Positions 14,942 to 32,321 of a stretch of DNA of 64,000 nucleotides are shown one piece after another. The stretch is from an uncultured Lachnospiraceae bacterium (GTDB lineage Bacteria; Bacillota; Clostridia; Lachnospirales; Lachnospiraceae), in the NCBI GenBank assembly GCA_946616295.1, contig CAMOIU010000001.1, positions 17,748-81,747 of the forward strand, given 5' to 3'. Position 1 is the first letter of the stretch. Each line of letters starts with the position of its first letter. The notes under the pieces are model-generated. The model saw only the letters and a program-made list of their open reading frames with translations, ran no database searches and was not told the origin of the DNA. A program made the position numbers and the translations under genes.

Positions 14942-14980
14942 TCGCTGCCCACGGTAAAGACTGCCTGTTCGGAGAAGATC

Positions 14981-15478: not shown

Positions 15479-16767
15479 ACATCTCACCGCTTGCCGCATT
15501 TTTCCTGGTCTTTGTGATCCTGGTAGTGATCAGGATGCCCATGTTCATGTGCCTGATGGGTTCGGCGGTCATCTATATCATTATGAGCCCGCAGCTGAAC
15601 ATGCTTACAGCCATGACCAAGCTGATGGCCGGACCTAATTCGTACACGCTTCTGGCTGTGCCGTTCTTCATCCTGGCGGCACAGCTGATGAACAACGGCG
15701 GTGTGACCGACCGGATCTTCGGATTCTGCAAAGTGCTTTTGGGGCATCTTCCCGGCGGCCTTGCCTATGTCAATGTGGCAGCCAGCCTGATCTTTTCCGG
15801 GATCAGCGGATCGGCACTGGCAGATGTCGGAGGTCTGGGACAGCTCGAGATCAAGGCGATGCGTGACGAGGGATATGACGATGACCTCACCATCGGCATC
15901 ACCGCTGCATCGAGTACCGTCGGCCCGATCATTCCCCCCAGCATTCCCTTCATCATCTATGCTTCCATGGCAGGCGTCTCTGTCGGCGCAATGTTCATGG
16001 GCGGTATCGGCCCCGGGATCCTCTGCAGCATCGTCCTGTGCATCTACATTTATATGTTGACCAAAAAACGGCACTATAAGGCGCATGAAAAGGCTTCCGG
16101 AAGAGAGATCTGGGATTCCTTCAAAAATGCCTTTGCCGCGCTGATGTTCCCCGTGATCATGCTCGGAAGCATATGGTCCGGTGTCGTGACACCGACCGAG
16201 GCAGCTATGATCGCGGTGCTCTACGGCCTGTTCGTCAGCATCTTCCTCTATAAGGATATCAAGCTGCAGCAGCTGCCGGAGATCATCATCGGTGCGCTGG
16301 AGCAGGCAGGTCCTTCTATGGCGTGTGTGATCTCCGCTGGCGTTTTTGCCTGGGTTCTGACGTATGAAAAGATCGATTCCGTGGCAGTCAGCCTCATTCT
16401 TTCGATCACGCAGAACAAATTTGTGATCCTTCTGCTTCTGAACGTACTGCTGCTCTTCCTGGGCATGTTCGTGGAAGTCACCGCGGCGATCATGATCACG
16501 CTGCCGATCCTGACTCCTCTGATCGCCATTGCCGGGATCAATCCCGTTCACATGGGCATTATTCTGGTCTTCAATATGATGATCGGCCTTCTGACACCGC
16601 CTGTCGGCTTCTCACTGTACATGCTGACAAGCGTAGCCAACCGGAAGTTTGACGACATCGTGAAGATGGTCACGCCGTGGCTGATCCCGCTGTTTATCGT
16701 ACTGGCCCTGATCACTTATTTTGAACCGTTTGTGATGGGGCTGCCCAGACTGTTGGGTCTGGTCTGA
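15475..16767 (+). CDS. TRAP transporter large permease (DctM)
   Basis: LLAVPFFILAA, GISGSALAD, GPIIPPSIP, TPTEAA, GLLTPPVG. Confidence 0.93.
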   Translation: MNISPLAAFFLVFVILVVIRMPMFMCLMGSAVIYIIMSPQLNMLTAMTKLMAGPNSYTLLAVPFFILAAQLMNNGGVTDRIFGFCKVLLGHLPGGLAYVNVAASLIFSGISGSALADVGGLGQLEIKAMRDEGYDDDLTIGITAASSTVGPIIPPSIPFIIYASMAGVSVGAMFMGGIGPGILCSIVLCIYIYMLTKKRHYKAHEKASGREIWDSFKNAFAALMFPVIMLGSIWSGVVTPTEAAMIAVLYGLFVSIFLYKDIKLQQLPEIIIGALEQAGPSMACVISAGVFAWVLTYEKIDSVAVSLILSITQNKFVILLLLNVLLLFLGMFVEVTAAIMITLPILTPLIAIAGINPVHMGIILVFNMMIGLLTPPVGFSLYMLTSVANRKFDDIVKMVTPWLIPLFIVLALITYFEPFVMGLPRLLGLV

Positions 16768-16781
16768 AAGGGCATTCACTT

Positions 16782-18209: not shown

Positions 18210-19351
18210 AAGCGATCAGAATCATAAAACCCTGTAAAAACAGGGAGGTAAGGCACCGGGCAGAAGAGTATGTCCGGGTCGAGGAGACAGAGAAGCCGGT
18301 CCGCAGACCCGGAGAGGCACTGCTGAAGATCTTATATGGGGGGATCTGCGGGAGTGACAACGGATCGTACAAGGGAACCTTTGCATATGCACATTATCCG
18401 CTGATTCCGGGCCACGAATTCTCGGCACAGGTGATCGATGTGGATGAGGATAACGTGTACGGGATCAGAAAAGGCATGATCGTAACCTGCAACCCGTATA
18501 TGAATTGCGGTCACTGCATTGCCTGCAGGAGCGGAAATGTCAACGCCTGTATGAACAATCAGACCCTGGGCTGTCAGCGCGACGGAGCTTTTCGCGAATA
18601 TTTCACGATGCCGGTGGAGAGATGCTATGACGGAAAAGGCATGGACCCGAAGACACTTGCCGCTATAGAGCCCTTCTGCATCTCCTATCACGGAATCCGC
18701 CGCGCGCAGGTCAAGGCAGGGGAGAAGGTCCTGGTCGTCGGAGCCGGAACGATCGGCACACTGGCAGCAGCTGCCGCCAACGCGCTGGGGGCCGAGGTCT
18801 ACATCGCAGACACGATGAAGGGGAAGCTGGAGAAGGTCGAAAACCTTGGCATCGTCAGGGGCACGATCCTCAATGATCTTTCAGATCCGGATTCGTTCAT
18901 GAGAGGAGTAGGGGAGATCACCGGATATGAGGATTTCCTCGATGGAGAGGGAAAGCTGCAGCACGTCTGCAACGGATTTGACGTCACGATCGAAGCGGTC
19001 GGGCTGCCCTCCACTTTCCAGAACTGCATTGACGCAGCCCGTTTCGGAGGACGGATGGTCCTGATCGGTGTTTCCAATCGACCTCTGGACTTCGGATTCA
19101 ACATCATCCAGAAAAAAGAACTTTCCGTCTATGGTTCCAGAAATGCTCTGGAAGAAGATTTCCGGAGCCTGATCGATCTGGTGAATGCCGGTGGTATTCC
19201 ACTGGATGCCATCATTACGAACACTTACGAGCTGCAGGATGCGGCTCAGGCATTTGACGATTTTGCCTGCAATCCCGGGAACATGCTCAAGGTATCGATC
19301 CATATCGGGGATCCCGTAGATCTTACCTGTTTTGATTACGCATCTGCCTGA
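18206..19351 (+). CDS. Zn-dependent dehydrogenase (MDR; sugar-acid dehydrogenase-like)
   Basis: GICGSD, PGHEF, CGHCIAC...NAC Zn motif, VVGAGTIG; overlaps the esterase stop (ATGA). Confidence 0.88.
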   Translation: MKAIRIIKPCKNREVRHRAEEYVRVEETEKPVRRPGEALLKILYGGICGSDNGSYKGTFAYAHYPLIPGHEFSAQVIDVDEDNVYGIRKGMIVTCNPYMNCGHCIACRSGNVNACMNNQTLGCQRDGAFREYFTMPVERCYDGKGMDPKTLAAIEPFCISYHGIRRAQVKAGEKVLVVGAGTIGTLAAAAANALGAEVYIADTMKGKLEKVENLGIVRGTILNDLSDPDSFMRGVGEITGYEDFLDGEGKLQHVCNGFDVTIEAVGLPSTFQNCIDAARFGGRMVLIGVSNRPLDFGFNIIQKKELSVYGSRNALEEDFRSLIDLVNAGGIPLDAIITNTYELQDAAQAFDDFACNPGNMLKVSIHIGDPVDLTCFDYASA

Positions 19352-19390
19352 CATCCTGTTCACGCATGGCTCATTGCTTCGCGCATAGAA

Positions 19391-19425
19391 AAGCCCCGGA
19401 GGTCTGTGTAAGACCTCCGGGGCTT
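19391..19425. terminator. Bidirectional intrinsic terminator (dehydrogenase operon and the ancestral tRNA terminator)
   Basis: Perfect 15-bp stem AAGCCCCGGAGGTCT/AGACCTCCGGGGCTT. Confidence 0.85.
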
Positions 19426-19437: not shown

Positions 19438-19482
19438 AGTCGAGGCGACGGGATTCGAACCCACGACCTCTGCGTCCCGAAC
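19438..19482 (-). repeat. att site: duplicated 3' 45 bp of tRNA-Pro
   Basis: AGTCGAGGCGACGGGATTCGAACCCACGACCTCTGCGTCCCGAAC is identical to 32023-32067. Confidence 0.95.
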
Positions 19483-19598
19483 CTAACAACTAAGGTACCA
19501 ATGTGTACCATTTAGTGCCAAACAGTCGATAGATTCTAAGATTTCTGGCACGCAATCAAATACATTAACACGTAATAAAACGGGATAAAAAGGCAAAA

Positions 19599-19618
19599 GT
19601 TAGAACTTTTGTTAGAAC
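19599..19618 (+). promoter_or_regulatory. Candidate integrase arm-type sites (left end)
   Basis: Tandem GTTAGAAC at 19599 and 19611; the same pair occurs at the other end (31953, 31964). Confidence 0.7.
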
Positions 19619-19660
19619 AGAAAGACTCCTTGTGAACCACATGTTCAGAAGGAGTCTCTT

Positions 19661-22621
19661 TTGTTCAACGAAACTATTTCAACTCAGCTTGGATATGACG
19701 ACGGTTGGACTTTTGATCAGTATTCGGCAATTGTACAAGCACTTCAGGCCTACGGCTGCGAATACCTTAAAGGCAGAGAGGAATATACTCTTCTCAAAGA
19801 AGTGGTGTCACCCAATATTACCCGAGTTATAAATTCGGGTAATAGAGAGAATGCGGAAAAGTCAGTATTTACAAGGGCTGAAGGCAGTGGTGTCATTTTA
19901 CCTTTATGCAGGGCAATACCTATAAATGACACCGATATCTCCTCGTATAAGAAACCTTTTCTTGCCCCTTTGGATATCCAGAAGGCTGGAAGTATCGCGG
20001 ACATGATCCCGTCTTTTAAGGTTATACAGTCCTGCAACATGAGCCTCAATATAGGCTTTGATACCGAGTTCCAGGATTACCGTGATGGCCGTGATGGTTC
20101 TGGAACAAACAGACGGGTTCTTTCACTGCAGATGTCAATTGCTATCGGCGAAGTTCTGATCAGATATTTCTTCCTGGTGGATCCAAGATATCAGATTGTC
20201 ACCTCTGAAGGTGGACAGATACCGCTGAAATGCTGTTTGGCAGATATTCTTGCCGACTTGAAGAGGTGCTACTTTGAGGGATTCCCTCTGGTATTGAAAA
20301 GAAACATCCGATACAAAGAAAAATGCTGGAAGGGTCATGAGCCTTATAAAGTTGTCGATTTCTCTGCCATGAAGGATTTTGTGATACCGGTTACTATTAT
20401 CTGCCATACTGGCAAGGCTGATATTTCTGTCTTCCGACGTTCCAAATATGATATTGATATTATCCGCAAACTGGGCGAGATCCAGGGCGGATGGATGACG
20501 ACTGAATATGTTTACTTCACTGCTGCCAATGACATACACCGTAATTACTACTGGCTCGTCAACCTGACCATCAGGGATACTCTTGGGCTGACACCTGCAG
20601 ATAACAAGTCCTTGAAAGCTCTTGGAGATGTTCTTCAGCGGCCTAAGATCGATCTTCCGGGGGAGACCATTAAGCATATGTCCTCTTTCGCCGTTCTTAA
20701 CCCGGCTGAGTATTATGCGTATGCGATGAACGATGCCGATATTGTAGTTTCGTTCTGCTCAGAACTGTTTCTTTGCAATCATGCTGTTCCCATGACGCTG
20801 TCCAGTGCGGCAGCCGCTTCCATGTATGCAAATATCAAAAAGTATTTTGGCGTATCTAAGAAGACAGACTATGACAGGATATACAGGGGGTTGGAGATGC
20901 TGGATGAAGGTGTTATTCCTTCTAAAGAGGAATGTATGAAGTTTTTAAAGGCCACTCGCTATGTGCCGATTCGCGATAACCCCGATGCAAAGCTGGTGAC
21001 GGAGTATTTCGAGGAAGCGTATACAGGGGGGTTTAACGCTTCTTTCTATATTGGTTGGATTACAGAACAGACCACAGACTTCGATCTCCAGAACGCATAT
21101 CCTACAGCTATGGCAACTATCATTGACATCGATTGGAATGAGCATGTGCGGGATTTGCCGAGAGACTATCTTCGGCTGCAGGATCTGGTAAGCCCGCTTG
21201 TCCCTGCTGTTGCCGTAGGAGATTTCGACTTTCCTGAAGATTGCTATTGCCCCAATATCCCTGTACCTGTAAAAGGTGGTATGAAGATTTATCCACGCCA
21301 CGGCAGAAATGTCTACATGTCAGGTCCGGACATGTATCTTGCGCTAAAACTTGGAGCTCGAATAAAAATCTTCCGCGGTTTTACCTGCACGATGCTTGAG
21401 ACGAAAGAGGGCTCTCCTTCTAAATGTCTTGCGTATGCCGTTACAAGCCTCGTTCAGGACAGAATGCTGGCGAAGAGGATTTATAAGGATAAACCCCTGG
21501 TAGAGAAGAGCCTGAAAACCATGGTAAATAGCTGCTACGGAAAAACTGCGCAGAACGTATCCCCTAAGACCAGATATAACGCTCAGAAGATGGGGCGTGT
21601 AGATGCAGAGCCTTCTGCTGTAACCAGTCCCTACCATGCCACCTATACTACTGCCCTTGTGCGCTGTATGCTGATCGGTTGTATAAATGAACTTCATGAA
21701 ATGGGATACCATGTTTATTCCGTTACAACAGATGGGTTTATCACAGACGCTCCGACAGCGGTAGTGAGGAATCTGAACGCTTACGGTTTTACCAGGATTT
21801 TCCAGAGCGGTCGTTATACGCTAAATCAGACCCGCGACGACTGCGAAGCTAATCAGGTGTGGGAACCCAAACATTTTAACAACGCCTTTTTGAACATCAC
21901 GACGCGTGGGAATGTAGCTGTAAATGATGAAGGAGTCCTCGCACACAATTCCTACGTTACTGGTGAGGTTAAGGACAGCCGCGCAGACAGAGATGCATAT
22001 ATTATTGCCGTTCTTTCTCGTGAAGGGAAACTGAAGTGCCCTACTAAAATCTGGACAGAGTTTTCAGAAATAGTAGAAAGGCGTCATGACTTCGGCGTAT
22101 CCGAAACTATCCGCGAGTTATCGATGGATTTCGATTATAAAAGGTGTCCTGTACTCGAAACAGCAAAAGACACTCCTGTACACTACGAAAGTGTGGACGG
22201 TCAGTATTCCGTGGACACTGTCATAGCTGAATTTGACACGCGCCCGTTTGTTGATGCCGAGGAATTTCTAAATTACAGGAATACGTTGCGGAACGAAAAC
22301 TGTGTAAAAGTCACGGCAGATCTTGAGCGTGTGGAGGTCAAATCTACTGTTCAGACCAAGGGATACATCGGCAAGAACCTGCCGAGGAAGATTATTCTCT
22401 CCATTCTTATGGGCTATCGTGCGGGCTTATATAAGATCCCCGCTCTTGATGGCCTTAAGCAGGCAGAGGTTGTGGATACCGTTAATTCATGGGAGATCGC
22501 GGAAATCAGCCTCAGTGACTGGAAAAACTGCTCGAGAACAAAGAGACAGGAGAATATGCTGCCTCGCGAAGTCATACAGGAAACTCTTGATATGATTTTG
22601 AAACTTGGAGAAGACCGTTAA
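19661..22621 (+). CDS. Family-B DNA polymerase, primer-independent (piPolB)-like; start uncertain (TTG 19661)
   Basis: ExoI IGFDTE, ExoII HTGKAD, ExoIII YAMNDA, YTGGFN, PolA DFDLQNAYPT, PolB KTMVNSCYGKTAQ, PolC SVTTDGF (TTD instead of DTD), EPKH, ITTRG. Confidence 0.85.
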   Translation: MFNETISTQLGYDDGWTFDQYSAIVQALQAYGCEYLKGREEYTLLKEVVSPNITRVINSGNRENAEKSVFTRAEGSGVILPLCRAIPINDTDISSYKKPFLAPLDIQKAGSIADMIPSFKVIQSCNMSLNIGFDTEFQDYRDGRDGSGTNRRVLSLQMSIAIGEVLIRYFFLVDPRYQIVTSEGGQIPLKCCLADILADLKRCYFEGFPLVLKRNIRYKEKCWKGHEPYKVVDFSAMKDFVIPVTIICHTGKADISVFRRSKYDIDIIRKLGEIQGGWMTTEYVYFTAANDIHRNYYWLVNLTIRDTLGLTPADNKSLKALGDVLQRPKIDLPGETIKHMSSFAVLNPAEYYAYAMNDADIVVSFCSELFLCNHAVPMTLSSAAAASMYANIKKYFGVSKKTDYDRIYRGLEMLDEGVIPSKEECMKFLKATRYVPIRDNPDAKLVTEYFEEAYTGGFNASFYIGWITEQTTDFDLQNAYPTAMATIIDIDWNEHVRDLPRDYLRLQDLVSPLVPAVAVGDFDFPEDCYCPNIPVPVKGGMKIYPRHGRNVYMSGPDMYLALKLGARIKIFRGFTCTMLETKEGSPSKCLAYAVTSLVQDRMLAKRIYKDKPLVEKSLKTMVNSCYGKTAQNVSPKTRYNAQKMGRVDAEPSAVTSPYHATYTTALVRCMLIGCINELHEMGYHVYSVTTDGFITDAPTAVVRNLNAYGFTRIFQSGRYTLNQTRDDCEANQVWEPKHFNNAFLNITTRGNVAVNDEGVLAHNSYVTGEVKDSRADRDAYIIAVLSREGKLKCPTKIWTEFSEIVERRHDFGVSETIRELSMDFDYKRCPVLETAKDTPVHYESVDGQYSVDTVIAEFDTRPFVDAEEFLNYRNTLRNENCVKVTADLERVEVKSTVQTKGYIGKNLPRKIILSILMGYRAGLYKIPALDGLKQAEVVDTVNSWEIAEISLSDWKNCSRTKRQENMLPREVIQETLDMILKLGEDR

Positions 22622-22654
22622 TTATTCTCTGCAGAGTTCCAGAAGCCAATGTGA

Positions 22655-22719
22655 ATCGGTTTACCCGGTTAAAGGGGGAGGGGACATAGTCCCCGAACCT
22701 CTTGAACGGGTAAACCGAT
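22655..22719. repeat. 65-bp nested inverted repeat downstream of the polymerase
   Basis: ATCGGTTTACCCG/CGGGTAAACCGAT outer stem and GGGGAC/GTCCCC inner stem. Confidence 0.8.
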
Positions 22720-22789
22720 ATCCTTATATATAGGCTGAATATGTTTTTTTATAAACTGGGAAAGATTCGACCATATAAAAGGTAGTCAT

Positions 22790-23250
22790 ACAAAAGTATG
22801 TAGAAATAGATGCTTCAGAACCGGGATCGACCGGGGAAGTCCTGAAAAGCGCCGCAGTAACCTTTGTGAATTGGCATAGTAGGGGCTCAGGCAAGGCCGT
22901 TAGTAACCCTGTGAACGCAGGCCAAGCAACCGAAGTGACGGACAAATCGAGAACCTTCCGAGACCGTGGGAAGTGAAAATGAAGCGGGCGTAACTCGTAA
23001 ACCTTGTGATGGTGACTGTACTGATCGTAAAACTGTACATGACTTTGGATGTTCAAGATGAACGGACTCGTAGACTGCAGGAATGCGACGTCGGCTGTAC
23101 AACGACGGGGGACCGGCGACAGACCGGAACGAAGAACCTGGACACATAACCAGTAAAAAAGTGTAGAAGCGGATGCTTCAAACCGACACACATAAGTCGT
23201 TAAAAAGTGTTCATTGCCGAATATCGAGATCCTTCGGGACTGGTAGGAAG
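22790..23250 (+). ncRNA. Candidate structured non-coding RNA or regulatory region (unassigned)
   Basis: No convincing ORF; several local hairpins, a C(UUCG)G tetraloop, recurring GTAA[A/C]C..TGTGA motifs and an imperfect flanking direct repeat. Confidence 0.35.
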
Positions 23251-23320
23251 CGACTCTTGTTTTAACCGGGGAAGACCATATTTTGAAAAAACGGATTGTA
23301 CTTCAAAAGGAGAAGGTGCC

Positions 23321-24361
23321 GTGGGCAGAAAAAATAAAAGATACAGCAAAGATTTGCACCAGCAGGCCTATGAAAGGCTGACCGGGATGCAGGCCTTTGG
23401 GCAGTCCAAGAAAGAAGCGGCTGCAAACGGGACGGAGAAGGACAAGATTTTCTCGTACAGCACATATCAGACCTACTGGAAGCATACAAAATACTTCGTG
23501 AAATGGATCCAGGAGAAATATCCGGACTGCACGACGTTGAAGGCTGCGCGCCGTCATGTGAACGAGTGGCTTCAGAGCCGTGTCAATCAGGTCGACGAAA
23601 AGGGACAGCATCTTTCCGCTTGGACGATACAGACAGAGGCTGCCGCGCTGAACAAAGTGTATCAGATCGACAAGTCAGATCCGGATCGGTTTCAGCCTCC
23701 GAGGCGGAACAGGTCAGAGATCAAGAGGAGCCGTGTGACGACGGCGAGGGATGCGCATTTCAGCATAACGAACAATGACGAGCTGATCAAGTTTTGTAAG
23801 GGCACAGGCTGCCGCAGGGGCGTCCTGGAAAAGCTGGAAGGCCGGGATCTGTGGACCAGGAAGTCGATGGAAGACAGGGTTTCTTCTTTAGAGGCACGGG
23901 CAGATCTGTCGCCGAAAGAGGCCAAGCATTTGGCGACGCTGCGGGATGCTCTGGCGGTGTTTCCGGATCACGATTACTTTATTCATCATCGGAAAGATAA
24001 AAACGGCCGGTACCGCTTCGCGCCGGTTATTGGTCCGGATAAGGATAAGATCATCGAACGTATGCGGACCACGGGGGCAACAGAAAAGGTCTGGCAGCAT
24101 GTGAACAGTAACGCGGATATTCACGGTTACCGCGCCGAGTATGCAACAGCCATGTATAAGCATTACGCCAGAAAGATCGAAGATATCCCGTATGACAGGG
24201 TAAATAAAGGTACTGGGAGACTGTACCAGAGTGACGTATATATTTGCAGAAAAGACGAGGCAGGAAGAAGACTGGATCGTGCCGCGATGAGAAAAGCCAG
24301 CAAAGCACTCGGACACAATAGGATTTCAATTATAGCAGACCATTATATCCGGGGGTTGTGA
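23321..24361 (+). CDS. Atypical tyrosine recombinase-family protein
   Basis: GTG start after AAGGAGAAGG; SAM-like N-terminus (TYQTYWKHTKYFVKW...SAWTIQTEAAAL); catalytic-like GTGCRR, HHRKDKNG, HGYR, ALGH...HY. Confidence 0.75.
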   Translation: MGRKNKRYSKDLHQQAYERLTGMQAFGQSKKEAAANGTEKDKIFSYSTYQTYWKHTKYFVKWIQEKYPDCTTLKAARRHVNEWLQSRVNQVDEKGQHLSAWTIQTEAAALNKVYQIDKSDPDRFQPPRRNRSEIKRSRVTTARDAHFSITNNDELIKFCKGTGCRRGVLEKLEGRDLWTRKSMEDRVSSLEARADLSPKEAKHLATLRDALAVFPDHDYFIHHRKDKNGRYRFAPVIGPDKDKIIERMRTTGATEKVWQHVNSNADIHGYRAEYATAMYKHYARKIEDIPYDRVNKGTGRLYQSDVYICRKDEAGRRLDRAAMRKASKALGHNRISIIADHYIRGL

Positions 24362-24374
24362 AAAAGGAGAGCAC

Positions 24375-25157
24375 ATGGCAAGATTTTACAAAAAAGACGA
24401 GCTCGGCCGTTTAGTTGAAACAGACAGCGGGGCGTTCGATTCAGACGTGGAAGTAGTCAGCATGACAGGATGTGAATTCCGCGATATGCAGGCATCGATA
24501 CAAAGTGAGAAGAGGAGAGCTGATAAGGCAGAAGATCTAAACAGGAACCTGTTGCGGATCATGAAGGAGAGATCCAATGCCGAAAGAGGAATACGGCCCA
24601 AAAAGGAAAAGGACGGCTATATTGTATTGGAGTCTCGCCAGTGGTATGAGAGGTATCAGGTTGCTGTGTGGCATCCGGAGGTGGATCCTGACATGTTTCG
24701 AAAAACAGAGGAGGGGAGAAGTGAAGCATTAAGGAAAAAGCTGGTACGCTTTGAACCGCATACCGCAGTAACTTGGAAAACAATTATACAGACACCATAT
24801 GATGTTTCATTACCGAAAGAGAGCGTAGAAGATCTCATAGAAGAAGAAATAGTAAAAGTATTAGCAGAAATGGGATGTCTGAAAAGCAACAGCAGGAAAC
24901 TGAACGGGACATTCCGCTCTTTTGGGATTGGCCCGGACGGACATCACATTAACGGACGGTACCGCTGGGTATACCGAGCAAATTACCGGTCTGGCTATTG
25001 GGAGGTTGAATGCTATACTCTTAAAGCCTTAGACGTACCCATCCACCGCCAGTGTGAAAGAACGAACCGGACAAAAAAGAAAAAACAGAATAAAAAAAAG
25101 GATTCTCGCGAAGATCTGTTTTCCCTGTTTGGGGATTTTGATGACACTGTTCAATAA
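24375..25157 (+). CDS. Hypothetical protein (260 aa; coiled-coil segment, basic/acidic tail)
   Basis: AAGGAG RBS; 13 bp after the recombinase stop; no motif recognised. Confidence 0.75.
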   Translation: MARFYKKDELGRLVETDSGAFDSDVEVVSMTGCEFRDMQASIQSEKRRADKAEDLNRNLLRIMKERSNAERGIRPKKEKDGYIVLESRQWYERYQVAVWHPEVDPDMFRKTEEGRSEALRKKLVRFEPHTAVTWKTIIQTPYDVSLPKESVEDLIEEEIVKVLAEMGCLKSNSRKLNGTFRSFGIGPDGHHINGRYRWVYRANYRSGYWEVECYTLKALDVPIHRQCERTNRTKKKKQNKKKDSREDLFSLFGDFDDTVQ

Positions 25158-25252
25158 AACAGTTGTTTTCGTGAACACAAAAGAGCTTGCCGGAATGTGG
25201 GCTGTAAAGTATGATTTGTGTTAAAGAAAATAGGACAGCCTTTTCGTGAACA
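25148..25252. promoter_or_regulatory. Candidate res site of the serine resolvase
   Basis: TGTTCA-AT-AAAACA-GT-TGTTTT-CG-TGAACA (25148-25177) and a second inverted pair TGTTAAAGAAAA/TTTTCGTGAACA (25219-25252). Confidence 0.6.
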
Positions 25253-25262
25253 GGAGGGAAGA

Positions 25263-25868
25263 ATGTCTGTCATATATGGATACGCCAGATGCTCGACTGA
25301 CGAGAGCCGGCAGGACATCGACCGCCAGAAGCGGGAGCTGTTCGCGATGGGCGTGAAGGAAGACAAGCATATTTATTGGGAATATGAGTCTGGGACGAAA
25401 GAGAACCGGGCGGAACTTGCGAAGTTGCTGGACGTGATCCGGGAAGGTGATTCGATTGCGGCAACGGAAGTTTCCAGGCTGACGAGATCGACAAAGCAGC
25501 TGTGTGAGATTCTGCAGATGGTTCAGGACAAGAAGATATGCCTTCTGATAGGCTCTTTTTCCGTGGATTGCAGGGCAGAGACCAGTGACCCGATGACAAA
25601 GGGGATGCTGATGATGTGGGGAGTATTCTCGGAGATGGAGCGCGATATCATCAGCCAGCGGGTTAAGTCCGGCATGAAGAACGCCGCAGCGAAGGGCAAG
25701 CGTATCGGGAGACCGAAGACGACCGCTGATACTCTTCCGGAAAAGTTTTGGAAGTATTACAAGTTGTATAAAGACGATGAAATTACAGTCGCTGAGTGTG
25801 CCAGACTGATGGATTGTTCGCGGACGACGGTTTATAAGTACCTGGACATGGCAGAGGCATGTAAATAA
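25263..25868 (+). CDS. Small serine recombinase (resolvase/invertase) with C-terminal HTH
   Basis: YGYARCST, Q...RQ, YESGT...RAEL, EVSRLTRS, SEMERDIISQR...G, GRPK. Confidence 0.93.
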   Translation: MSVIYGYARCSTDESRQDIDRQKRELFAMGVKEDKHIYWEYESGTKENRAELAKLLDVIREGDSIAATEVSRLTRSTKQLCEILQMVQDKKICLLIGSFSVDCRAETSDPMTKGMLMMWGVFSEMERDIISQRVKSGMKNAAAKGKRIGRPKTTADTLPEKFWKYYKLYKDDEITVAECARLMDCSRTTVYKYLDMAEACK

Positions 25869-25929
25869 AATGCGGCGGCATTTTCCGCTGTGACCGTTGG
25901 GAACACGTAAAAGCCAGGAGGAAAGTAAT

Positions 25930-26997
25930 ATGTCAAAAGAAGTATTTAGGATGGGGGAGCTTTTCTGCGGGCCCGGGGGAATAGCATGTGGTGCGCACAG
26001 GGCCGTAAGCGATGATGGTGAAAAATCGATTATTCACGCTTGGGCTAATGACTTCGATCCGGATACCTGTGAAACCTATGCAAAGAACATCTGCGGAGGC
26101 GATGGCTCTTCCGTGTATTGTCAGGATGTGAGGGAGCTTAATATTCCCGCACTTGGACCAATAGATGCCTTCTCGTACGGCTTTCCGTGCAACAGCTTCT
26201 CCAATGTCGGAGAACATCAGGGGCTGGAGAATGATAAGTTCGGTCAGCTATACACATACGGCGTTGAAGTGCTGAAATATTACCAGCCCAAATGGTTCCT
26301 TGCGGAAAATGTATCAGGAATTAGGTCGGCTGGTGACGGAAGCCATTTCCAGATCATTCTGGATGATCTTGCCGGTGCCGGGTACACACTGGTAACGAAC
26401 ATGTACAAGTTTGAAGAGTACGGAGTACCTCAGACCCGTCACAGGATCATCATTGTCGGCATCCGGAACGATCTCGATGCCCAAGGTATCAAGTTCAAGG
26501 TCCCTTCACCGGAACCGTATAAGAACTGCGATGTAACGGCCGGTACTGCCCTTTCCGGCATTCCGGCGGATGCCCCGAACCACGAGGTGCGGAAACTGCA
26601 GGACAAGGTGAGGCTCCGTCTTTCCTACATAAAGCCCGGGCAGAACATCTGGCAGGCAGAGAACCTTCCGCCAGAGCTGATGATCAAAACTCGGACCAAA
26701 ATCAGCCAGATCTACAGGAAGCTTGACCCGGCAAAACCGTCGTACACAGTCACGGCCGCAGGCGGCGGCGGTACATTCATGTACCATTGGTCGGAAGAAC
26801 AGCGCGAACTCACGAACCGGGAACGCGCAAGGATACAGACTTTCCCTGACGATTTCGAGTTCGTCGGAAAGTATTCATCGGTCAGAAAACAGATTGGGAT
26901 GGCGGTCCCGCCGAAAGGAGCGGAAATCATCTTCCGTGCCATACTGAACACCTTTGCCGGGATCGACTACCCTTATGTGGAGCCGAGTATGTCGTAA
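25930..26997 (+). CDS. C5-cytosine DNA methyltransferase, M.BbvI-like
   Basis: ELFCGPGG, GFPCN, AENV, YGVPQTRHRIIIVG, TNRERARIQTFPD, QIGMAVPP; the overall layout matches M.BbvI as recalled. Confidence 0.92.
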   Translation: MSKEVFRMGELFCGPGGIACGAHRAVSDDGEKSIIHAWANDFDPDTCETYAKNICGGDGSSVYCQDVRELNIPALGPIDAFSYGFPCNSFSNVGEHQGLENDKFGQLYTYGVEVLKYYQPKWFLAENVSGIRSAGDGSHFQIILDDLAGAGYTLVTNMYKFEEYGVPQTRHRIIIVGIRNDLDAQGIKFKVPSPEPYKNCDVTAGTALSGIPADAPNHEVRKLQDKVRLRLSYIKPGQNIWQAENLPPELMIKTRTKISQIYRKLDPAKPSYTVTAAGGGGTFMYHWSEEQRELTNRERARIQTFPDDFEFVGKYSSVRKQIGMAVPPKGAEIIFRAILNTFAGIDYPYVEPSMS

Positions 26998-27018
26998 AAC
27001 GTATTGGAGGGAGAAGCC

Positions 27019-28683
27019 ATGCTGAACTACTGGTGGGTGACACGCCCTAAGAGGAAACTGGACAGTGTTCCGGAAGTGCTCGCGGCATTTGCCGACATAT
27101 CGCTCAACCAGGAATGGACAGGCCAGCGCGGCACGCAAATGGCCTATGAGGAAGCACTCGAAAAGGCTGGTCTGAAACGTGTCGGTGCAAGGCGTGACCA
27201 GTCCGGGTCCGGCGGACGTACATACGGGGCATGGCTTGTTTCTCTCGGCCTTATTTTCAACCAGGCCGAAACCGGCAACATTAAACTTACACTTGCCGGA
27301 GAAGCTATCATGAACGGCGATTCTCCCGTGGATGTTTTGAAGAACCAGGTGCTGAAGTACCAGTTCCCGTCAGCTTTCTCTCTCGGCAGGGGCGTACAGG
27401 TACACAGCCGGTTTAAGATCCGGCCGTTCCGCTTCCTTTTGAAACTGCTTTCGGACGACAGACTGGAACGGTACCTAACACAGGACGAAATCGCCAAGGT
27501 CGCCGCGGTGGACGCGGAGAACGAGACATCGGCCGTCTATGAAATGGTCGTACAGAAGATCCTGCGCTTCCGTGAAGTGGGCGACAGGTGCCTTGATCCG
27601 GATTTCTTTGGGTTGTATAAGCCCGGAAAAGGCGACGTCAACCCGGATCATCCGTTCAGCCATCTCCAGGACATGGCCAACACGATGATCAACTGGCTGG
27701 AATATACACAGCTGGCAAAGCGGAACGACGACAGGCAGCTTGTTATCCTGGAAGAGAAACAGGCAGAGGTCGGCGCAATCCTTGCTACGGTGCCGCCGTT
27801 CATTGACCGGCCGGAAAACCACGAGTTCTTCCAGCGGAAATACGGCTTGGACCCAAAGCACCGTAAAGATACAAGGAACCTTGAAAAGACCAAGACAGTC
27901 ACGGCCCGCATTATTGCCGAGCAGAAAATCCGTTCTGCCTATATCCGCGCGTCTCTGGCGAAACCGATTACCGGTATCACACCGGACCTGATCGCGGATA
28001 TCACCGAGGAAACGGGCATTACACCAGACCTGGTTGAAGAGATTCTGCGCAAGGCATATCCTCACGGATCGATCGGGGCTTTCATGGCGTCCTATTTCGA
28101 AATGGCGTTCAAGGGCCGCGAGGAATGCACTGAATTTGAGGTGGCGACAACAGAGCTGTTTAAGGACGTATTCGGATATGACGCAAGGCATCTCGGACAG
28201 ACAGGAAGCAAGTCCGCTCCTGATGTGCTGCTCCTTTCCGATTCTGACGGATATCAGGCTGTTATCGATAATAAGGCGTACAGCAAATACAGCATCAGCG
28301 GCGATCACCATAACCGGATGGTACATAATTACCTGGAGAGAATTAACACATACAGCCCCAGCCCGTACCCGATCGGCTTTTTCTCCTATATCGCTGGCGG
28401 GTTTGGCAAGACCATCGACAAGCAGATACAAGACGAGGTCAGGGAAAGCGGCGTTCACGGGTCAGGCATCACGGTCTCCAACTTCATAAAGATGATTGAG
28501 AATCAGCAGAACGGTGTCAGACAGTACAGCCATAAAAACTTGAGGAATATTTTCGGTCTTGACAGGCAGGTGATGTTGCAGGACGTCTATGAGGGCGGGC
28601 ACAACACCGTACAGTATGACTTCCGGCAACGGGAACTCGACATGGTGGCTGAACAGTCCGTCCAGTACGGGAGGAAAGACTAA
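27019..28683 (+). CDS. Type IIS restriction endonuclease with a FokI-like cleavage domain
   Basis: C-terminal FEVATTELFKDVFGYDARHLG...PDV...IDNKAYSKY parallels the FokI PD...DxKAY domain; sits between the MTase and vsr. Confidence 0.8.
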   Translation: MLNYWWVTRPKRKLDSVPEVLAAFADISLNQEWTGQRGTQMAYEEALEKAGLKRVGARRDQSGSGGRTYGAWLVSLGLIFNQAETGNIKLTLAGEAIMNGDSPVDVLKNQVLKYQFPSAFSLGRGVQVHSRFKIRPFRFLLKLLSDDRLERYLTQDEIAKVAAVDAENETSAVYEMVVQKILRFREVGDRCLDPDFFGLYKPGKGDVNPDHPFSHLQDMANTMINWLEYTQLAKRNDDRQLVILEEKQAEVGAILATVPPFIDRPENHEFFQRKYGLDPKHRKDTRNLEKTKTVTARIIAEQKIRSAYIRASLAKPITGITPDLIADITEETGITPDLVEEILRKAYPHGSIGAFMASYFEMAFKGREECTEFEVATTELFKDVFGYDARHLGQTGSKSAPDVLLLSDSDGYQAVIDNKAYSKYSISGDHHNRMVHNYLERINTYSPSPYPIGFFSYIAGGFGKTIDKQIQDEVRESGVHGSGITVSNFIKMIENQQNGVRQYSHKNLRNIFGLDRQVMLQDVYEGGHNTVQYDFRQRELDMVAEQSVQYGRKD

Positions 28684-28684
28684 C

Positions 28685-29104
28685 ATGGATGATATGACGC
28701 CCGAGCAGCGCCGCAGGAACATGCAGCATATCCGTTCCAAGAATACTTCCATTGAAATCAAACTCCGGACAGCGCTATGGCACGCAGGCATCCGTTATAG
28801 GAAAAATTATAAGGCATTGCCCGGAAAACCGGATATAGTGGTCACGAGGTATAAAATCGCGGTCTTTTGCGACTCCTCTTTTTGGCATGGACGGGATTTT
28901 GAAAGCAAAAAACCTGTAGACACTAATCATGAATACTGGGAAGCTAAGATCCGGCGGAATATGCAGAGAGACGAGGAAGTAAACAAGCAGTTGCGTGCTT
29001 TAGGGTGGACTGTTCTGCGATTTTGGGACGAGGAGATCAATAAGAATATTGATGAATGCGTCCAAGCTGTACAAGAAACCATTTTCCTTACAAAACTGGA
29101 ATAA
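28685..29104 (+). CDS. vsr: Very short patch repair endonuclease
   Basis: MDDMTPEQRRRNMQHIRSKNT..E, LPGKPDIV, FCDSSFWHG, GWTVLRFW. Confidence 0.93.
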   Translation: MDDMTPEQRRRNMQHIRSKNTSIEIKLRTALWHAGIRYRKNYKALPGKPDIVVTRYKIAVFCDSSFWHGRDFESKKPVDTNHEYWEAKIRRNMQRDEEVNKQLRALGWTVLRFWDEEINKNIDECVQAVQETIFLTKLE

Positions 29105-29112
29105 AGCAACGG

Positions 29113-29150
29113 AAAGAGCGGTCCGGCAAAAAGTCGGACCGCTCTTTTTT
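29113..29150. terminator. Bidirectional intrinsic terminator
   Basis: AAAGAGCGGTCCG/CGGACCGCTCTTT stem plus a T-run, between convergent genes. Confidence 0.85.
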
Positions 29151-29169
29151 AATGCGGTTTTCTATAAGG

Positions 29170-29775
29170 TCACTTATCCTCGAGATCAGCTAACTGCTTC
29201 TCTAAAGCAGCTATTTTTTCTTGTATTTGCTGGCGCTGCATTAGTGCTGTAGCCTGATCGCTTAATGATTGGGGAAATGTCCATTTAAAATTATTATATC
29301 GGTCACTTGCAGCCTGCTCATCTGCCTTGGTTATGGCTGTATCCATTTCGGCTTTGTATACAGTGATGGCGTCAAACCATGCTTTTAAGTACTTCTTTAG
29401 TATCCGTGACTGATCTTCCCTAAAGGAGAGAAAAAATAGTCCATTCTGTTCGGACAGATCGAGACCATACAGCTTCTCCATCTCGAAGAATGCGTACATA
29501 ACACCAAGATAGGTAGAAATGTCCGGATCGGCAAGGGCCATTGTCTCGACACCTAATGCCAAAGCGAACACTTTTAACAATTCTTTTTTGGGCCTTCTGT
29601 ACCCGTTTTCGTATTTTTGTACGCGATCTGCAGTTAAACCAACCTTTTCCCCGAGTTCTGTCTGTGTCATTCCTCTGGCGGTCCTGATTTCGCGGATCCG
29701 GCTACCGATCCGTTTTGCAGCACTCTCTTCTATAAAGTCAAGAGGGTCTTGACCAATAGGGTTCCTAATTTCCAC
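29170..29775 (-). CDS. XRE-family HTH repressor
   Basis: IGSRIREIRTARGMTQTELGEKVG...VQKYENGYRRP; GTG start after AGGAGG. Confidence 0.9.
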   Translation of the reverse strand: MEIRNPIGQDPLDFIEESAAKRIGSRIREIRTARGMTQTELGEKVGLTADRVQKYENGYRRPKKELLKVFALALGVETMALADPDISTYLGVMYAFFEMEKLYGLDLSEQNGLFFLSFREDQSRILKKYLKAWFDAITVYKAEMDTAITKADEQAASDRYNNFKWTFPQSLSDQATALMQRQQIQEKIAALEKQLADLEDK

Positions 29776-29892
29776 AGTATTATTCCTCCTAATAAACGGA
29801 TACTACAAACACATCTTAACACAGATAGCCAGCCACAAGAACAAAAAATGAACAGAAAAGAACAAATTAACATAAAAAGCGCTTAAAAGGGC

Positions 29893-29921
29893 TTGCAAAG
29901 AACATAGATGTGATGTATAAT
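29893..29921 (+). promoter_or_regulatory. Promoter of the xis-integrase operon
   Basis: TTGCAA, 17 bp, TATAAT; AAGAACA repeats around it. Confidence 0.7.
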
Positions 29922-29975
29922 CCGGATCAACAAGAACAGAAAAGTGCTTTTCAAGAACCTACTTAGGAGGACATA

Positions 29976-30179
29976 ATGGAAAAAACACAGCTTTTGGCTG
30001 ATTATGAAGATGTACTTCGCCCGGAAGATGTTCAGAGAATTCTTCATGTCGGCCGTAACACGGTGTACAAGTATCTTGCTGACGGAAAGATTCCGTCGAT
30101 TAGGATCGGAACGCAGTACAGGATCCCTAAGCGGTCCCTGATCGACTTCCTCTATCCGTCTGTGGAAGAAACATATTAA
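29976..30179 (+). CDS. Excisionase-type HTH DNA-binding protein
   Basis: VLRPEDVQRILHVGRNTVYKYLADGKIPSIRIG...RIPK; AGGAGG RBS. Confidence 0.9.
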   Translation: MEKTQLLADYEDVLRPEDVQRILHVGRNTVYKYLADGKIPSIRIGTQYRIPKRSLIDFLYPSVEETY

Positions 30180-30195
30180 AAGAGGAGGAATAACA

Positions 30196-30684
30196 ATGAA
30201 GTTCGTTGACGAAAACCATCAGAGAGCATACGTCGAGGCAGTGACGAAGTACAAGGTAAAGCCCGGAAACACAGAAGTTGCTGCAGTGCTTTACCTGTTA
30301 ACAGCTTCTCGCGATTGCAGATGCAGGCTGGAGGATCTTGTTCATTATAGCAGTACGGGGCTGAGCATCAATTCCGAGGCCCTGCATTCTAAGTGGCTTA
30401 CGGGAGGTAGCGAAAGACTTCTGCGTCTTGCTTTTAATCTCTTTACGGGTGTAGCACCTTCGGCAATGACATGGGATACGAGAGAAGAGAAGTACAACAT
30501 CGACACAGATGAGGTTATGAACTACCTCCCGCTGACAATTTTCAGCGGTCTCGATCCGGATCTTTTTGAAGCAGGGCTCGAGGCACTTCGCCTCCATAGA
30601 GGAAGAGTTTGTTCACACGACGAAGAGTATATTGCAGACGTGAACGAACGGCTGTTTATGCAGAAGTATGGAGTGGTATTGTGA
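30196..30684 (+). CDS. Conserved mobile-element hypothetical protein (DUF6075-like)
   Basis: WLTGGSERLLRLAFNLF resembles the W.TSGS..L.RLAFNL motif of clostridial ICE proteins (recalled). Confidence 0.6.
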   Translation: MKFVDENHQRAYVEAVTKYKVKPGNTEVAAVLYLLTASRDCRCRLEDLVHYSSTGLSINSEALHSKWLTGGSERLLRLAFNLFTGVAPSAMTWDTREEKYNIDTDEVMNYLPLTIFSGLDPDLFEAGLEALRLHRGRVCSHDEEYIADVNERLFMQKYGVVL

Positions 30685-31889
30685 TGGCAAGAAAGAAGAA
30701 AGACGGCCGTAGGGCACAGGGAATCCAGGCAAAAAAAGGCATGCTCTATATCGTTGTTTCCAGGAGTGGACTGAACAACGGGGAAAAAGTATTCACCAAA
30801 AAATGGGTAGCCACAGGTCTGACAGACACTCCTGATAATGTCAATAGGGCTGAGGAGATGCGCCGCGCGATACTCTCAAAAGGAAGGGATGTGCTTACCA
30901 CGGACTATGATGTGACCATGTCGGAGTATGTGGATCTTTTTCTTGAAAAAATAAAAAGAAGTATTAGTGATACCACTTACTCCGGGTATCTCTATCGTGG
31001 AAAGAGAATCAAGGACTTCTTTGGACTGACTAAGATCAGGAGTGTCACCAAGAATGATGTAGAGCAGTTCCTGGATCACCTGATCACGCACTGCAAAAAC
31101 CAGGAAAGAACAGTAAAGGATACGAAAACGTTTCTGAATAGCGTCCTTGATCAGGCGGTGAAGGATACCCTCATCGCGGATAATCCGGCAACCAGCGCCA
31201 CGCTGAACAAGCGGTTGCTCGAGAATAACGCCAAGGAAAAGAATGACGACGATACCTTTTTTTCGTATCAGGAGGCACAGTATTTCCTCAGCATCTCAGA
31301 AACACATCCGCTTTATGAACTCTTTTATGTTGCCTTATTTTTTGGCCTTCGCCGCGAGGAAGTTCTGGGGCTCCGCTGGTCTTGCATAAACTTTAAGGCA
31401 AAAGAGTTTCATATAAGCCATACAGTCACAAGAGGAACAACGGTTAACCGCTTGAACCGTACAAAGACAAGAAGCAGCAAAAGAACATATCCCCTAACAG
31501 ACGATCAGATAAAACTTTTTCGGCATTTGAAGTCAGAAGAGGAGAAGAACAGAAAACTATTTGGGAGAGCATATACAGACACAGAGTATGTTTTTAAACA
31601 TCAGGATGGATCGCTGTACTATCCGGATTATCCCTCTAAGGCGCTGAAGAAAATCATAAAAGAACATGCAGAGCTTCCCCAGGGAGTTACATTCCACAAA
31701 CTGCGCACATCTTGCGTTTCAATCCTTGTTCATGAAGGCTACGATGTCAAAAGAATCCAGAAGTGGGTTGGACATGATGATATAAATACCACTCTTAAGA
31801 TATACGCAATGGTAAAGGATAAGGAGTCGAAAGCAGAGATAGCGACCAGTATGGAAACTATTATTAGACCCAAAACGTATACGTCGTGA
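30684..31889 (+). CDS. Tyrosine integrase
   Basis: FGLRREEVLGLRW, TKTRSS, FHKLRTS, VGHDDINTTLKIY; adjacent to the att site and tRNA. Confidence 0.95.
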   Translation: MARKKKDGRRAQGIQAKKGMLYIVVSRSGLNNGEKVFTKKWVATGLTDTPDNVNRAEEMRRAILSKGRDVLTTDYDVTMSEYVDLFLEKIKRSISDTTYSGYLYRGKRIKDFFGLTKIRSVTKNDVEQFLDHLITHCKNQERTVKDTKTFLNSVLDQAVKDTLIADNPATSATLNKRLLENNAKEKNDDDTFFSYQEAQYFLSISETHPLYELFYVALFFGLRREEVLGLRWSCINFKAKEFHISHTVTRGTTVNRLNRTKTRSSKRTYPLTDDQIKLFRHLKSEEEKNRKLFGRAYTDTEYVFKHQDGSLYYPDYPSKALKKIIKEHAELPQGVTFHKLRTSCVSILVHEGYDVKRIQKWVGHDDINTTLKIYAMVKDKESKAEIATSMETIIRPKTYTS

Positions 31890-31952
31890 TGCAGTAACCA
31901 TTCTATCTCACAAGGAGATCATTCCCTTTTTACGTGGTAATTCGCAAGGATT

Positions 31953-31971
31953 GTTAGAACTTTGTTAGAAC
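31953..31971 (+). promoter_or_regulatory. Candidate integrase arm-type sites (right end)
   Basis: Tandem GTTAGAAC at 31953 and 31964. Confidence 0.7.
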
Positions 31972-31980
31972 TTGGCACGA

Positions 31981-32013
31981 AAAAAGGGCTTCCGGAATCA
32001 CCGAAAACCCTTT
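31981..32013 (-). terminator. Element-encoded terminator downstream of tRNA-Pro
   Basis: Minus strand: AAAGGGTTTTCGG-TGATT-CCGGAAGCCCTTTTTT. Confidence 0.7.
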
Positions 32014-32024
32014 ATCTGAGCCAG

Positions 32025-32098
32025 TCGAGGCGACGGGATTCGAACCCACGACCTCTGCGTCCCGAACGCAGCGCTCTACCAAACTGAGCCACGCCTCG
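32025..32098 (-). tRNA. tRNA-Pro (anticodon CGG), CCA not encoded
   Basis: CGAGGCGTGGCTCAGTTTGGTAGAGCGCTGCGTTCGGGACGCAGAGGTCGTGGGTTCGAATCCCGTCGCCTCGA folds as a cloverleaf with anticodon loop TTCGGGA. Confidence 0.97.
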
Positions 32099-32180: not shown

Positions 32181-32229
32181 CACAGAGAACCGTCCCCTGT
32201 GTGAGCCGCACAGAGAACCGTCCCCTGTG
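32181..32229 (-). repeat. Tandem pair of REP-like palindromes
   Basis: CACAGAGAACCGTCCCCTGTG at 32181 and 32209. Confidence 0.85.
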
Positions 32230-32321
32230 CGGGCCCGGTCGTTGAAGGGAAAAAGGGAAACTGGTATACTGTAAAGCAGAGGCGGAAGCAGTTTGTATAT
32301 GCACAGACAAGGAGGGGAGAG

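Follow-up and report, generated by a model that had tools for sequence, protein, structure and literature searches.

The window analysed here, a stretch of 64,000 nt from contig CAMOIU010000001.1 of an uncultured Lachnospiraceae bacterium (GCA_946616295.1), holds between positions 19438 and 32067 a repeat-bounded element with the gene of a family B DNA polymerase (PolB) at one end and an integrase gene beside a tRNA gene at the other (Table 1). Between them lie a structured noncoding element, two further recombinases, and a restriction-modification (R-M) system. We consider that this is very probably an integrated, apparently intact pipolin of the Gram-positive (Clostridia) lineage of primer-independent PolBs (piPolBs), inserted in the tRNA-Pro(CGG) gene of a rumen Lachnospiraceae. 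This pipolin has swapped the transfer genes of its relatives for a plasmid-borne RNA-recombinase module. The source contig is also recorded as a metagenome scaffold, and its RpoB, 84-88% identical to proteins of Lachnospiraceae, Candidatus Limivivens and Lachnoclostridium, bears out the clostridial anaerobe that a preliminary description of this DNA had taken as the host.

Table 1. Features of the element and of its immediate borders, in window coordinates.
Feature	Position	Strand	Basis and remarks
G+C-rich hairpin and T-run, outside the element	19389-19423	-	GCCCCGGAGGTCT..AGACCTCCGGGGC TTTT comes after the partial tRNA copy, read in the orientation of the tRNA
Distal att repeat, an incomplete copy of tRNA-Pro (3' end)	19438-19482	.	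exact 45-nt direct repeat
Predicted piPolB, 986 aa	19661-22621	+	motifs, tblastn, tree; weak PF03175 and PHROG DNA polymerase matches
Conserved structured noncoding element	22640-23320	+	upstream of the second tyrosine recombinase
Second tyrosine recombinase, 346 aa	23321-24361	+	start set after the ribosome-binding site AAAGGAGAAGG
260-aa protein, travels with the second recombinase	24375-25157	+	no family match (Pfam, NCBIfam, PHROGs, PADLOC)
Small serine recombinase (resolvase/invertase type)	25218-25868	+	PF00239 E 1.4e-33 and HTH_7; NCBIfam invertase/resolvase models below cut-offs
C5-cytosine DNA methyltransferase, modification part of a type II R-M system	25897-26997	+	PF00145 E 1e-67; PADLOC MTase_II E 2e-100
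Type IIS-like restriction endonuclease (AlwI-type N-terminal part, FokI-type cleavage domain)	27004-28683	+	PF09254 E 1.8e-14, PF09491 E 3e-6, PADLOC REase_II E 1e-33
Vsr very-short-patch repair endonuclease	28589-29104	+	PF03852 E 5e-28; PADLOC Vsr
XRE-family helix-turn-helix regulator	29170-29775	-	PF01381 E 6e-14
HTH_17 excisionase (recombination directionality factor)	29976-30179	+	PF12728 E 9e-14
DUF6075 protein	30196-30684	+	PF19552 E 1e-16
Tyrosine integrase	30609-31889	+	PF00589 E 1e-23 and SAM-like domains; phrog_1 integrase E 8e-56
Proximal att repeat, within the functional tRNA	32023-32067	.	exact 45-nt direct repeat
tRNA-Pro(CGG), integration target	32024-32098	-	ARAGORN; Rfam tRNA 65.8 bits; single copy in the genome

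The limits of the element are set by the target tRNA, the sole tRNA that ARAGORN finds in the window. The repeat consists of the 3' 44 nt of tRNA-Pro(CGG) plus one base. Its two copies are identical at 45/45 positions, lie 12,585 nt apart, and are the only two in the 2.72-Mb genome, which has one tRNA-Pro(CGG) only. The exact 45-bp duplication of the tRNA 3' end reported earlier is therefore real, and the limits proposed with it coincide with the repeat-to-repeat span. The G+C content is 47.5% in the element against 59.4% in the genome, with sharp steps at both repeats. The region is a foreign, low-G+C insertion of 12,585 bp. The size given when it was called a minimal 12.6-kb pipolin stands, but such smallness is not unusual, since plasmid pipolins measure ~8 kb.

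The far end carries a further trace of the insertion. If the element had entered between the tRNA and its terminator, the partial tRNA copy should be followed by a hairpin and a T-run, as it is. This hairpin is probably the displaced original terminator of tRNA-Pro, which would also serve the convergent alcohol dehydrogenase (ADH) gene. Loci of congeners show the corresponding arrangement: in three of them (L046, L047, L050) an intact tRNA-Pro(CGG) is directly followed by an analogous hairpin and T-run. The right-hand neighbour of the tRNA, a gene for an RlmI-like methyltransferase, is conserved genus-wide, and three congeners (G016, G010, G002) have tRNA-Pro(CGG) beside this same gene, in the same orientation, and then directly the hairpin and T-run. 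At their loci we found no homologue of any protein of the element, including the integrase and the piPolB. This comparison of the target site is made at the level of the genus, with tRNA and terminator present and the element missing. No piPolB was found in 24 congeneric species representatives, nor in 16 genomes of the same order. The element is thus not fixed among relatives, the possibility named beforehand as fatal to a mobile element, being absent from 40 of the 40 related genomes searched.

The nature of the polymerase is central to the classification. In piPolBs, as they have been defined (PMC5695915), the insertions TPR1 and TPR2 known from protein-primed PolBs are present, SxTTDG substitutes for YxDTDS as the PolC motif, and the extended KH-X8-KTRG takes over from KxY. 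The open reading frame (ORF) at the far end indeed encodes a 986-aa PolB with the TTD variant of PolC and a TTRG motif, as the preliminary description had it. Its motifs are FDTEF (ExoI), YAMNDAD, DLQNAYPTA (PolA), KTMVNSCYG (PolB), and YSVTTDG (PolC, TTD), and the active-site motifs of the exonuclease and polymerase domains align with those of references from piPolBs and from protein-primed PolBs (pPolBs). Residues D134, E136, D358, D473, D475, K619, Y626, G627, and D691 are invariant in 16 homologues, as are K737, H738, T748, R749, and G750 of the block KH-FNNAFLNI-TTRG (KH-x8-TTRG). Of 116 close relatives, 113 keep the SVTTDG motif (residues 687-692), and among 137 cluster representatives SxTTDG occurs almost without exception. 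In a joint alignment, the two blocks fall in the columns of SVTTDG and KH-x9-KTRG of the polymerase of Staphylococcus epidermidis pSE-12228-03, a plasmid named as a pipolin in two studies (PMC5695915, PMC11551731), whereas phi29, Bam35, and PRD1 have CDTDS there and lack the KH..TRG block.

Similarity searches and phylogeny point in the same direction. A tblastn search against 72,556 plasmids gave matches in plasmids of Staphylococcus, Fusobacterium, Limosilactobacillus, and Pseudosulfitobacter (best E 3e-31; 3e-30 to 1e-29 for the pipolin-type plasmids of the first three), and three of these four genera are listed hosts of plasmid or mobilisable pipolins (PMC11551731). The same search against 50,697 phage genomes gave no match at E <= 0.01. 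In a maximum-likelihood tree of 40 sequences the three pPolBs split from all others (98 SH-aLRT), and the Staphylococcus reference is nested among the relatives of the polymerase. These relatives are numerous: a profile search delimits a piPolB family of 1,569 clusters at 50% identity, and the closest members (52-82% identity) are mostly unnamed or "hypothetical" proteins in metagenome-assembled genomes (MAGs) of Lachnospiraceae, Blautia, and Eubacterium. Motifs, tblastn matches, and tree, taken together, identify the protein as a predicted piPolB and agree with the earlier expectation that it would group with piPolBs and apart from protein-primed or phage PolBs.

It is highly improbable that the gene encodes instead an ordinary protein-primed polymerase left by an integrated linear plasmid or a tectivirus-like prophage. 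The best PDB match of the AlphaFold2 (AF2) model is the phi29 DNA polymerase (E 2e-5, with a low TM score), and there is a weak match to PF03175, the "organellar and viral" PolB family. The fold match would suit a TPR-bearing family B enzyme and does not establish TPR1 or TPR2; PDB searches with the sequence and with its profile returned no match, phi29 included. Against this, the element lacks terminal inverted repeats as well as genes for a terminal protein, a capsid or packaging; its ends are direct repeats at a tRNA, and it encodes a tyrosine integrase. Its polymerase has TTD rather than DTD in PolC, possesses the KH..TRG block, matches no phage in tblastn, and stands apart from phi29, Bam35, and PRD1 in the tree.

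The identification of a pipolin draws on these piPolB signatures and on the context in which they occur, a repeat-bounded, integrase-bearing insertion at a tRNA with R-M cargo, which is the published anatomy of pipolins (PMC5695915, PMC11551731) and upholds the class assigned in the preliminary description. The XRE, Xis, and integrase genes reported earlier at the tRNA end have matches to PF01381, PF12728, and PF00589, respectively. The XRE regulator is likely the repressor of this excision module, and the integrase probably starts later than position 30609, sibling integrases having 401-402 aa. The proteins of the element were compared with Pfam, NCBIfam, PHROGs, and PADLOC. In these libraries none of them matches a relaxase, capsid or conjugation gene, in line with what had been stated, and none matches a coupling protein, type IV secretion system, terminase, terminal protein or primase; the 260-aa protein and the DUF6075 protein remain without an assigned role in the tally of primase, terminal protein, and virion genes. 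The count of three different recombinases was also right: the tyrosine integrase, the serine resolvase, and a divergent tyrosine recombinase. All ORFs of the element are open, and catalytic motifs are kept in the polymerase and in all three recombinases. The cargo joins an m5C methylase and a type IIS-like nuclease to Vsr, an enzyme that corrects the T:G mismatches arising from deamination of m5C. The true start of the vsr gene probably lies downstream of its overlap with the endonuclease gene.

A number of points weigh against the reading of this locus as a functional pipolin. First, the lysine of KTRG is replaced. The position (residue 747, ~21899-21901) is T in 111 of the 116 close relatives and K in none of the 137 representatives of 50%-identity clusters (TTRG in 82, STRG in 11, CTRG in 9, others in fewer), so that primer-independent synthesis is not guaranteed for the TTRG clade. 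In the piPolB of Escherichia coli, the lysine of the KH motif, which the present enzyme retains, has been implicated in de novo priming, and a K623A mutant was impaired in primer extension (PMC5695915), from which it follows that the TTRG clade may differ biochemically. Second, the AF2 model of the polymerase is poor (mean pLDDT 60.8), with values < 50 in the regions relevant to TPR1 and TPR2. Third, the tree comprises three pPolBs as its only outgroups, with no rPolBs and no E. coli piPolB. Fourth, no isogenic empty site of the same species was found: an exact look-up of the flanking ADH returned the same scaffold only, and the right-flank protein, as delimited, has no identical protein on record. 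Nor is the left flank (ADH, esterase) syntenic in congeners; homologues of the two genes occur in two congeners only, in other contexts and with no tRNA near.

The comparison with sibling elements shows what is common to this group and what is particular to the copy in the window. The scan of the genome collection used very specific peptide patterns, which retrieve close relatives only, and it yielded 24 loci with polymerases 67-83% identical to that of the window, mostly from rumen and gut Lachnospiraceae. Lachnospiraceae bacterium MA2020 and Porcincola intestinalis, both isolates, are among the sources. Three of them (L018, L007, L026) sit at tRNA-Pro(CGG); other loci adjoin tRNA-Met, tRNA-Arg, tRNA-Leu or tRNA-Gln. 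The repeats at tRNA-Pro measure 43 bp in L018 and L026. In L007 there is only an exact repeat of 17 bp at the matching position, whose spacing gives ~12.6 kb, and the element of L018 has ~12.3 kb. The integrases of L018 and L007, which likewise adjoin tRNA-Pro(CGG), are 56-57% identical to that of the window, the XRE regulator recurs at the same place in L007, L018, L013, and L020 (36-45% identity), and Xis homologues precede the integrase in L007, L018, and L020. The piPolB and the XRE-Xis-integrase module are all that these elements share with the window, since the middle differs. Siblings at the same tRNA therefore show conserved ends, with piPolB on one side and XRE-Xis-integrase on the other, and a variable middle.

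Truncated or oddly placed copies were also encountered. L026 holds a decayed remnant of 4.4 kb at tRNA-Pro(CGG) (9705-14114) that has 43-bp repeats and only residues 13-290 of piPolB, and in L025 the piPolB is cut to a partial copy adjoining tRNA-Arg with 22-nt repeats. PiPolBs 76-79% identical to ours occur in MAG bins labelled Treponemataceae, Thermoflexaceae, and Bacteroidaceae (L009, L012, L021), which reflects either a mis-binned mobile contig or a transfer across phyla.

The main difference concerns mobilisation. In four siblings (L018, L007, L020, L013) piPolB is immediately followed by a NikA/MobC-like protein and a MobA/VirD2 relaxase, a mobilisation (MOB) module preceded by a conserved, oriT-like intergenic block of ~130 nt. 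The cargo that comes after it includes Eco57I/MmeI-type or m5C R-M systems, a YhcG nuclease, an ion channel, and a peptidase. These MOB-bearing siblings are the "IME-pipolins" (pipolins as integrative and mobilisable elements) of a recent survey (PMC11551731). The element in the window encodes neither MobC nor a relaxase, and the oriT-like block, when looked for, was absent. The earlier statement that the element has no relaxase and that its movement is unexplained is thereby accurate as to the absence and in need of revision as to its meaning, because the absence is specific to the copy in the window. To lack a relaxase is, at the same time, normal for pipolins in general.

Such a loss could mean that the element is grounded, i.e. 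a mobilisable IME-pipolin in which recombination with a plasmid block removed oriT, MobC, and relaxase, and which now persists only as a chromosomal defence island held by R-M addiction, where piPolB would be idle for replication or would work in repair or defence. MobC, relaxase, and ~130-nt block are present in all four siblings that are fully readable and missing in the window, decayed relatives exist (L026, L025), and most pipolins have been described as non-mobilisable defence "hitchers" (PMC11551731). Yet the repeats are identical at 45/45 positions and the ORFs are all open, while integrase, Xis, resolvase, and polymerase keep their domains or catalytic motifs with no sign of decay. We find a grounded remnant possible and somewhat unlikely, and we favour an apparently intact pipolin with an exchanged module.

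That module occupies the position of the siblings' MOB genes, close to the resolvase and the R-M system, and consists of the structured noncoding element, the second tyrosine recombinase, and the 260-aa protein. The recombinase has no match in Pfam. Its residues R165/R166, K227, H268, R271, H332, and Y342 are invariant in 15 homologues, its AF2 model is confident (pLDDT 85.9), and the top Foldseek matches, over the full length, are VchIntIA, XerA, Cre, Tn1549 Int, and XerH. The RKHRHY residues, the model, and the fold matches with Cre, XerA, and IntI lead us to class it as a predicted simple two-domain tyrosine recombinase, divergent and Cre/Xer/IntI-like. It belongs to a family of > 2,100 clusters, a few of which match PF00589 or PF02899.

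The contexts of its homologues are those of plasmids and other mobile elements: contigs with Rep3_N and ParA or PIF1, elements with primase and DnaB, an element with DUF927, islands with large serine recombinases, a 21.8-kb plasmid of Flavonifractor plautii, and small plasmids of Streptococcus suis and Caldicellulosiruptor. Among close homologues, the gene comes after a stretch of 0.6-1.2 kb without a called gene, a homologue of the 260-aa protein is usually next, and a small resolvase and an R-M system lie a few kb away. The 260-aa protein has a homologue of 43% identity directly downstream of the recombinase in two plasmid-like contigs (L062, L064) and holds the same position in the F. plautii plasmid. 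The recombinase module is in none of the 24 sibling piPolB loci, so that the pipolin of the window must have acquired it from the plasmid pool. Most likely, the block serves in plasmid-type maintenance or in site-specific recombination of the circular form.

Several known systems help to place this recombinase. With Cre, XerA/XerH, and the integron integrase it has in common the RKHRHY set and the predicted core-binding and catalytic fold, and with Cre/loxP-type multimer resolution the association with plasmids. In contrast to Cre, Xer, and IntI, it is too divergent for Pfam, and a conserved structured RNA element of 0.6-1 kb precedes it. We know of no characterised tyrosine recombinase with a structured RNA element ahead of its gene.

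The gap of ~700 nt between piPolB and the second recombinase contains no credible gene. A 155-aa ORF on the minus strand (22724-23191) was rejected: it has no homologues, is not called in related contigs, and lies inside the conserved element. The element itself, of ~650 nt, has no gene called at its position in any homologous contig. In nhmmer searches, 64 of 73 loci have it ahead of a recombinase homologue, matching at least 480 of 629 model positions, in spite of recombinases that are only 61-86% identical. Besides the window, its copies lie in L096 (657-1425), L154 (1287-2151), L062 (6082-6894), and ~60 more loci. At its start stands a palindrome, GGTTTACCCG..CGGGTAAACC, that is almost invariant around a variable spacer (22655-22721 in the window). 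In most copies this is followed by a promoter-like TTGAC-N17-TATGGTATA and then by hairpins, including two repeats of CUGC-ACACAUAA-GCAG plus AAAAAGUGU.

A palindrome at this place also allows the recombinase to be read as a relaxase of the TcpM/MobK/MpsA type, with the palindrome and hairpins as oriT and the element still mobilisable. The module sits exactly where the siblings have MOB, the inverted repeat upstream is near-invariant, homologues lie on small plasmids of S. suis and Caldicellulosiruptor that MOB-suite calls non-mobilisable, and examples of tyrosine recombinase-like relaxases whose oriT lies upstream have been described from Clostridia and other groups, that of SGI1 requiring a small RNA from the oriT region (PMC8152469, PMC9299015). 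The hallmark of the known ones is, however, the absence of a core-binding domain (PMC8152469), and the present protein has an N-terminal helical domain. It aligns over its full length with Cre, XerA, and IntI, some homologues match PF02899, and no similarity to C. perfringens plasmids could be detected. Further, G-U pairs in the element and a Pistol ribozyme in other copies speak for a plus-strand RNA, which an oriT does not require. Failing the hallmark, we rate this alternative low, as an unlikely one, and retain the two-domain recombinase.

The case for an RNA was examined in the 3' domain of the element (145 nt, 23128-23272), with 23 hand-specified pairs on a MAFFT alignment of 22 related sequences. 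Pairing is possible in 93.7% of cells against 26-35% in slid controls, compensatory changes occur in 14 of the 23 pairs (2-5 in the controls), and none of 500 shuffles reached the covariation score. RNAalifold on the whole 3' domain returned only a sparse consensus, and the candidate pairs of possible pseudoknot repeats never vary. The G-U pairs (22/22 at one pair) fit the strand of the recombinase only. Within the same element, on the recombinase strand, a self-cleaving Pistol ribozyme (RF02679) is found in L096 and in the F. plautii plasmid NZ_CP095095 (L154), at 60-62 bits against a threshold of 34.5. In this respect the homologous elements embed a known ribozyme that the window lacks: the pistol-like block occurs in 40 of 73 copies and is missing from that of the window, which has no Rfam match at E <= 0.1, Pistol included. 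The ~650-nt element as a whole is not in Rfam. Covariation, G-U pairs, and the Pistol ribozymes of other copies indicate that the element works as a plus-strand RNA, and we take it to be a transcribed, structured RNA on these comparative grounds.

More speculatively, this RNA might be a functional partner of the recombinase: once cut out of the transcript, it would act in recombination in the role of cofactor, guide or switch. We think this improbable.

How an intact pipolin with such a module would behave can be outlined as follows. The tyrosine integrase would recombine a circular form, whose attP carries the 45-bp identity, with the tRNA gene, and the tRNA would be regenerated. XRE would keep the module repressed, until Xis and integrase excise the element as a circle. 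This circle could be replicated by piPolB starting synthesis without a primer, a proposal made alongside the absence of an encoded primase and terminal protein; a primer-independent start of DNA synthesis has reportedly been shown for the E. coli piPolB. The serine resolvase would then resolve replication multimers. Defence and addiction would fall to the cargo of m5C methylase, type IIS-like nuclease, and Vsr, the last of which would limit the damage from m5C deamination. Siblings could borrow a conjugative pore for transfer from cell to cell, which the copy in the window apparently cannot. With the MOB module replaced by the RNA-recombinase block, its transfer would depend on helpers or chance.

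The DNA around the element has features of its own. The left flank (14000-19400), with a TRAP transporter, a carboxylesterase, and the Zn-dependent ADH, has ~54% G+C against 59.4% in the genome and may be accessory DNA adjoining a tRNA hotspot. Right after the ADH stop, a sequence of ~40 nt (19348-19393) has copies 83-100% identical at many sites in congeneric genomes (seven in G007; present in G023, G005, and G009 too), and it resembles a REP-like or terminator repeat scattered through the host genus. Just past the 5' side of tRNA-Pro lie two tandem 27-nt copies, 93% identical (32181-32235), where congeners have a gene of ~460 aa between the tRNA and the RlmI-like gene.

The element is a Clostridia pipolin of an established class, whose major features have all been described for pipolins already. 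Like the Gram-positive pipolins of the Clostridia-Actinobacteria subgroup (PMC5695915, PMC11551731), it combines a piPolB that bears SxTTDG and KH..TRG with a tyrosine integrase and excisionase, repeats of a tRNA 3' end, an additional small serine resolvase, R-M cargo, and a conserved core with exchangeable cargo, and it has no primase, terminal protein or virion genes. It differs from them in that piPolB and integrase lie at opposite ends and the KTRG lysine is replaced. The tRNA-integrated pipolins of Corynebacterium and Limosilactobacillus carry an IntTn916-type integrase, and "IME-pipolins" carry MOB relaxases (PMC5695915, PMC11551731). For Clostridia, the 2024 survey found no clear association of piPolB with an integrase, the commonest pairing being a large serine recombinase plus resolvase (PMC11551731); here, by contrast, a tyrosine integrase with a tRNA-Pro(CGG) target recurs in several Lachnospiraceae. 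The E. coli 3-373-03_S1_C2 pipolin, whose piPolB has been characterised biochemically, is of the same class and has the same polymerase signatures, including the KH lysine. It is distant from ours, E. coli pipolins having ~20 kb or more, another core, and KTRG where ours has TTRG. The nearest annotated relative of the polymerase is that of Staphylococcus pSE-12228-03 (NC_005006; 27% identity over 58% of the query, E 3e-30), where piPolB is likewise followed by a small serine recombinase. That pipolin is an 8-kb circular mobilisable plasmid with KTRG and without integrase or att sites.

Our analysis has revealed what is new at the level of the lineage: 1) a group in Lachnospiraceae that repeatedly pairs a tyrosine integrase with tRNA-Pro(CGG) as its target; 2) a TTRG variant that is clade-wide; and 3) a copy in which the MOB module has been replaced by a plasmid RNA-plus-recombinase module. 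This provides a cleanly delimited pipolin in Clostridia, for which the 2024 survey could not define integrases or boundaries, and the set of siblings shows how cargo and mobilisation module are swapped. The very large piPolB clade of gut and rumen bacteria with TTRG makes the role of the KTRG lysine in priming directly testable. The RNA-recombinase module is the most unusual part of the element and may merit more study than the pipolin itself. It is a recurring genetic partner for Pistol ribozymes, whose biological role is, to our knowledge, still listed as unknown in reviews. If the RNA were indeed a partner of the recombinase, the two would make up an RNA-dependent tyrosine-recombinase system of a new kind, travelling among plasmids, islands, and pipolins, which has displaced the MOB module in the element described here.

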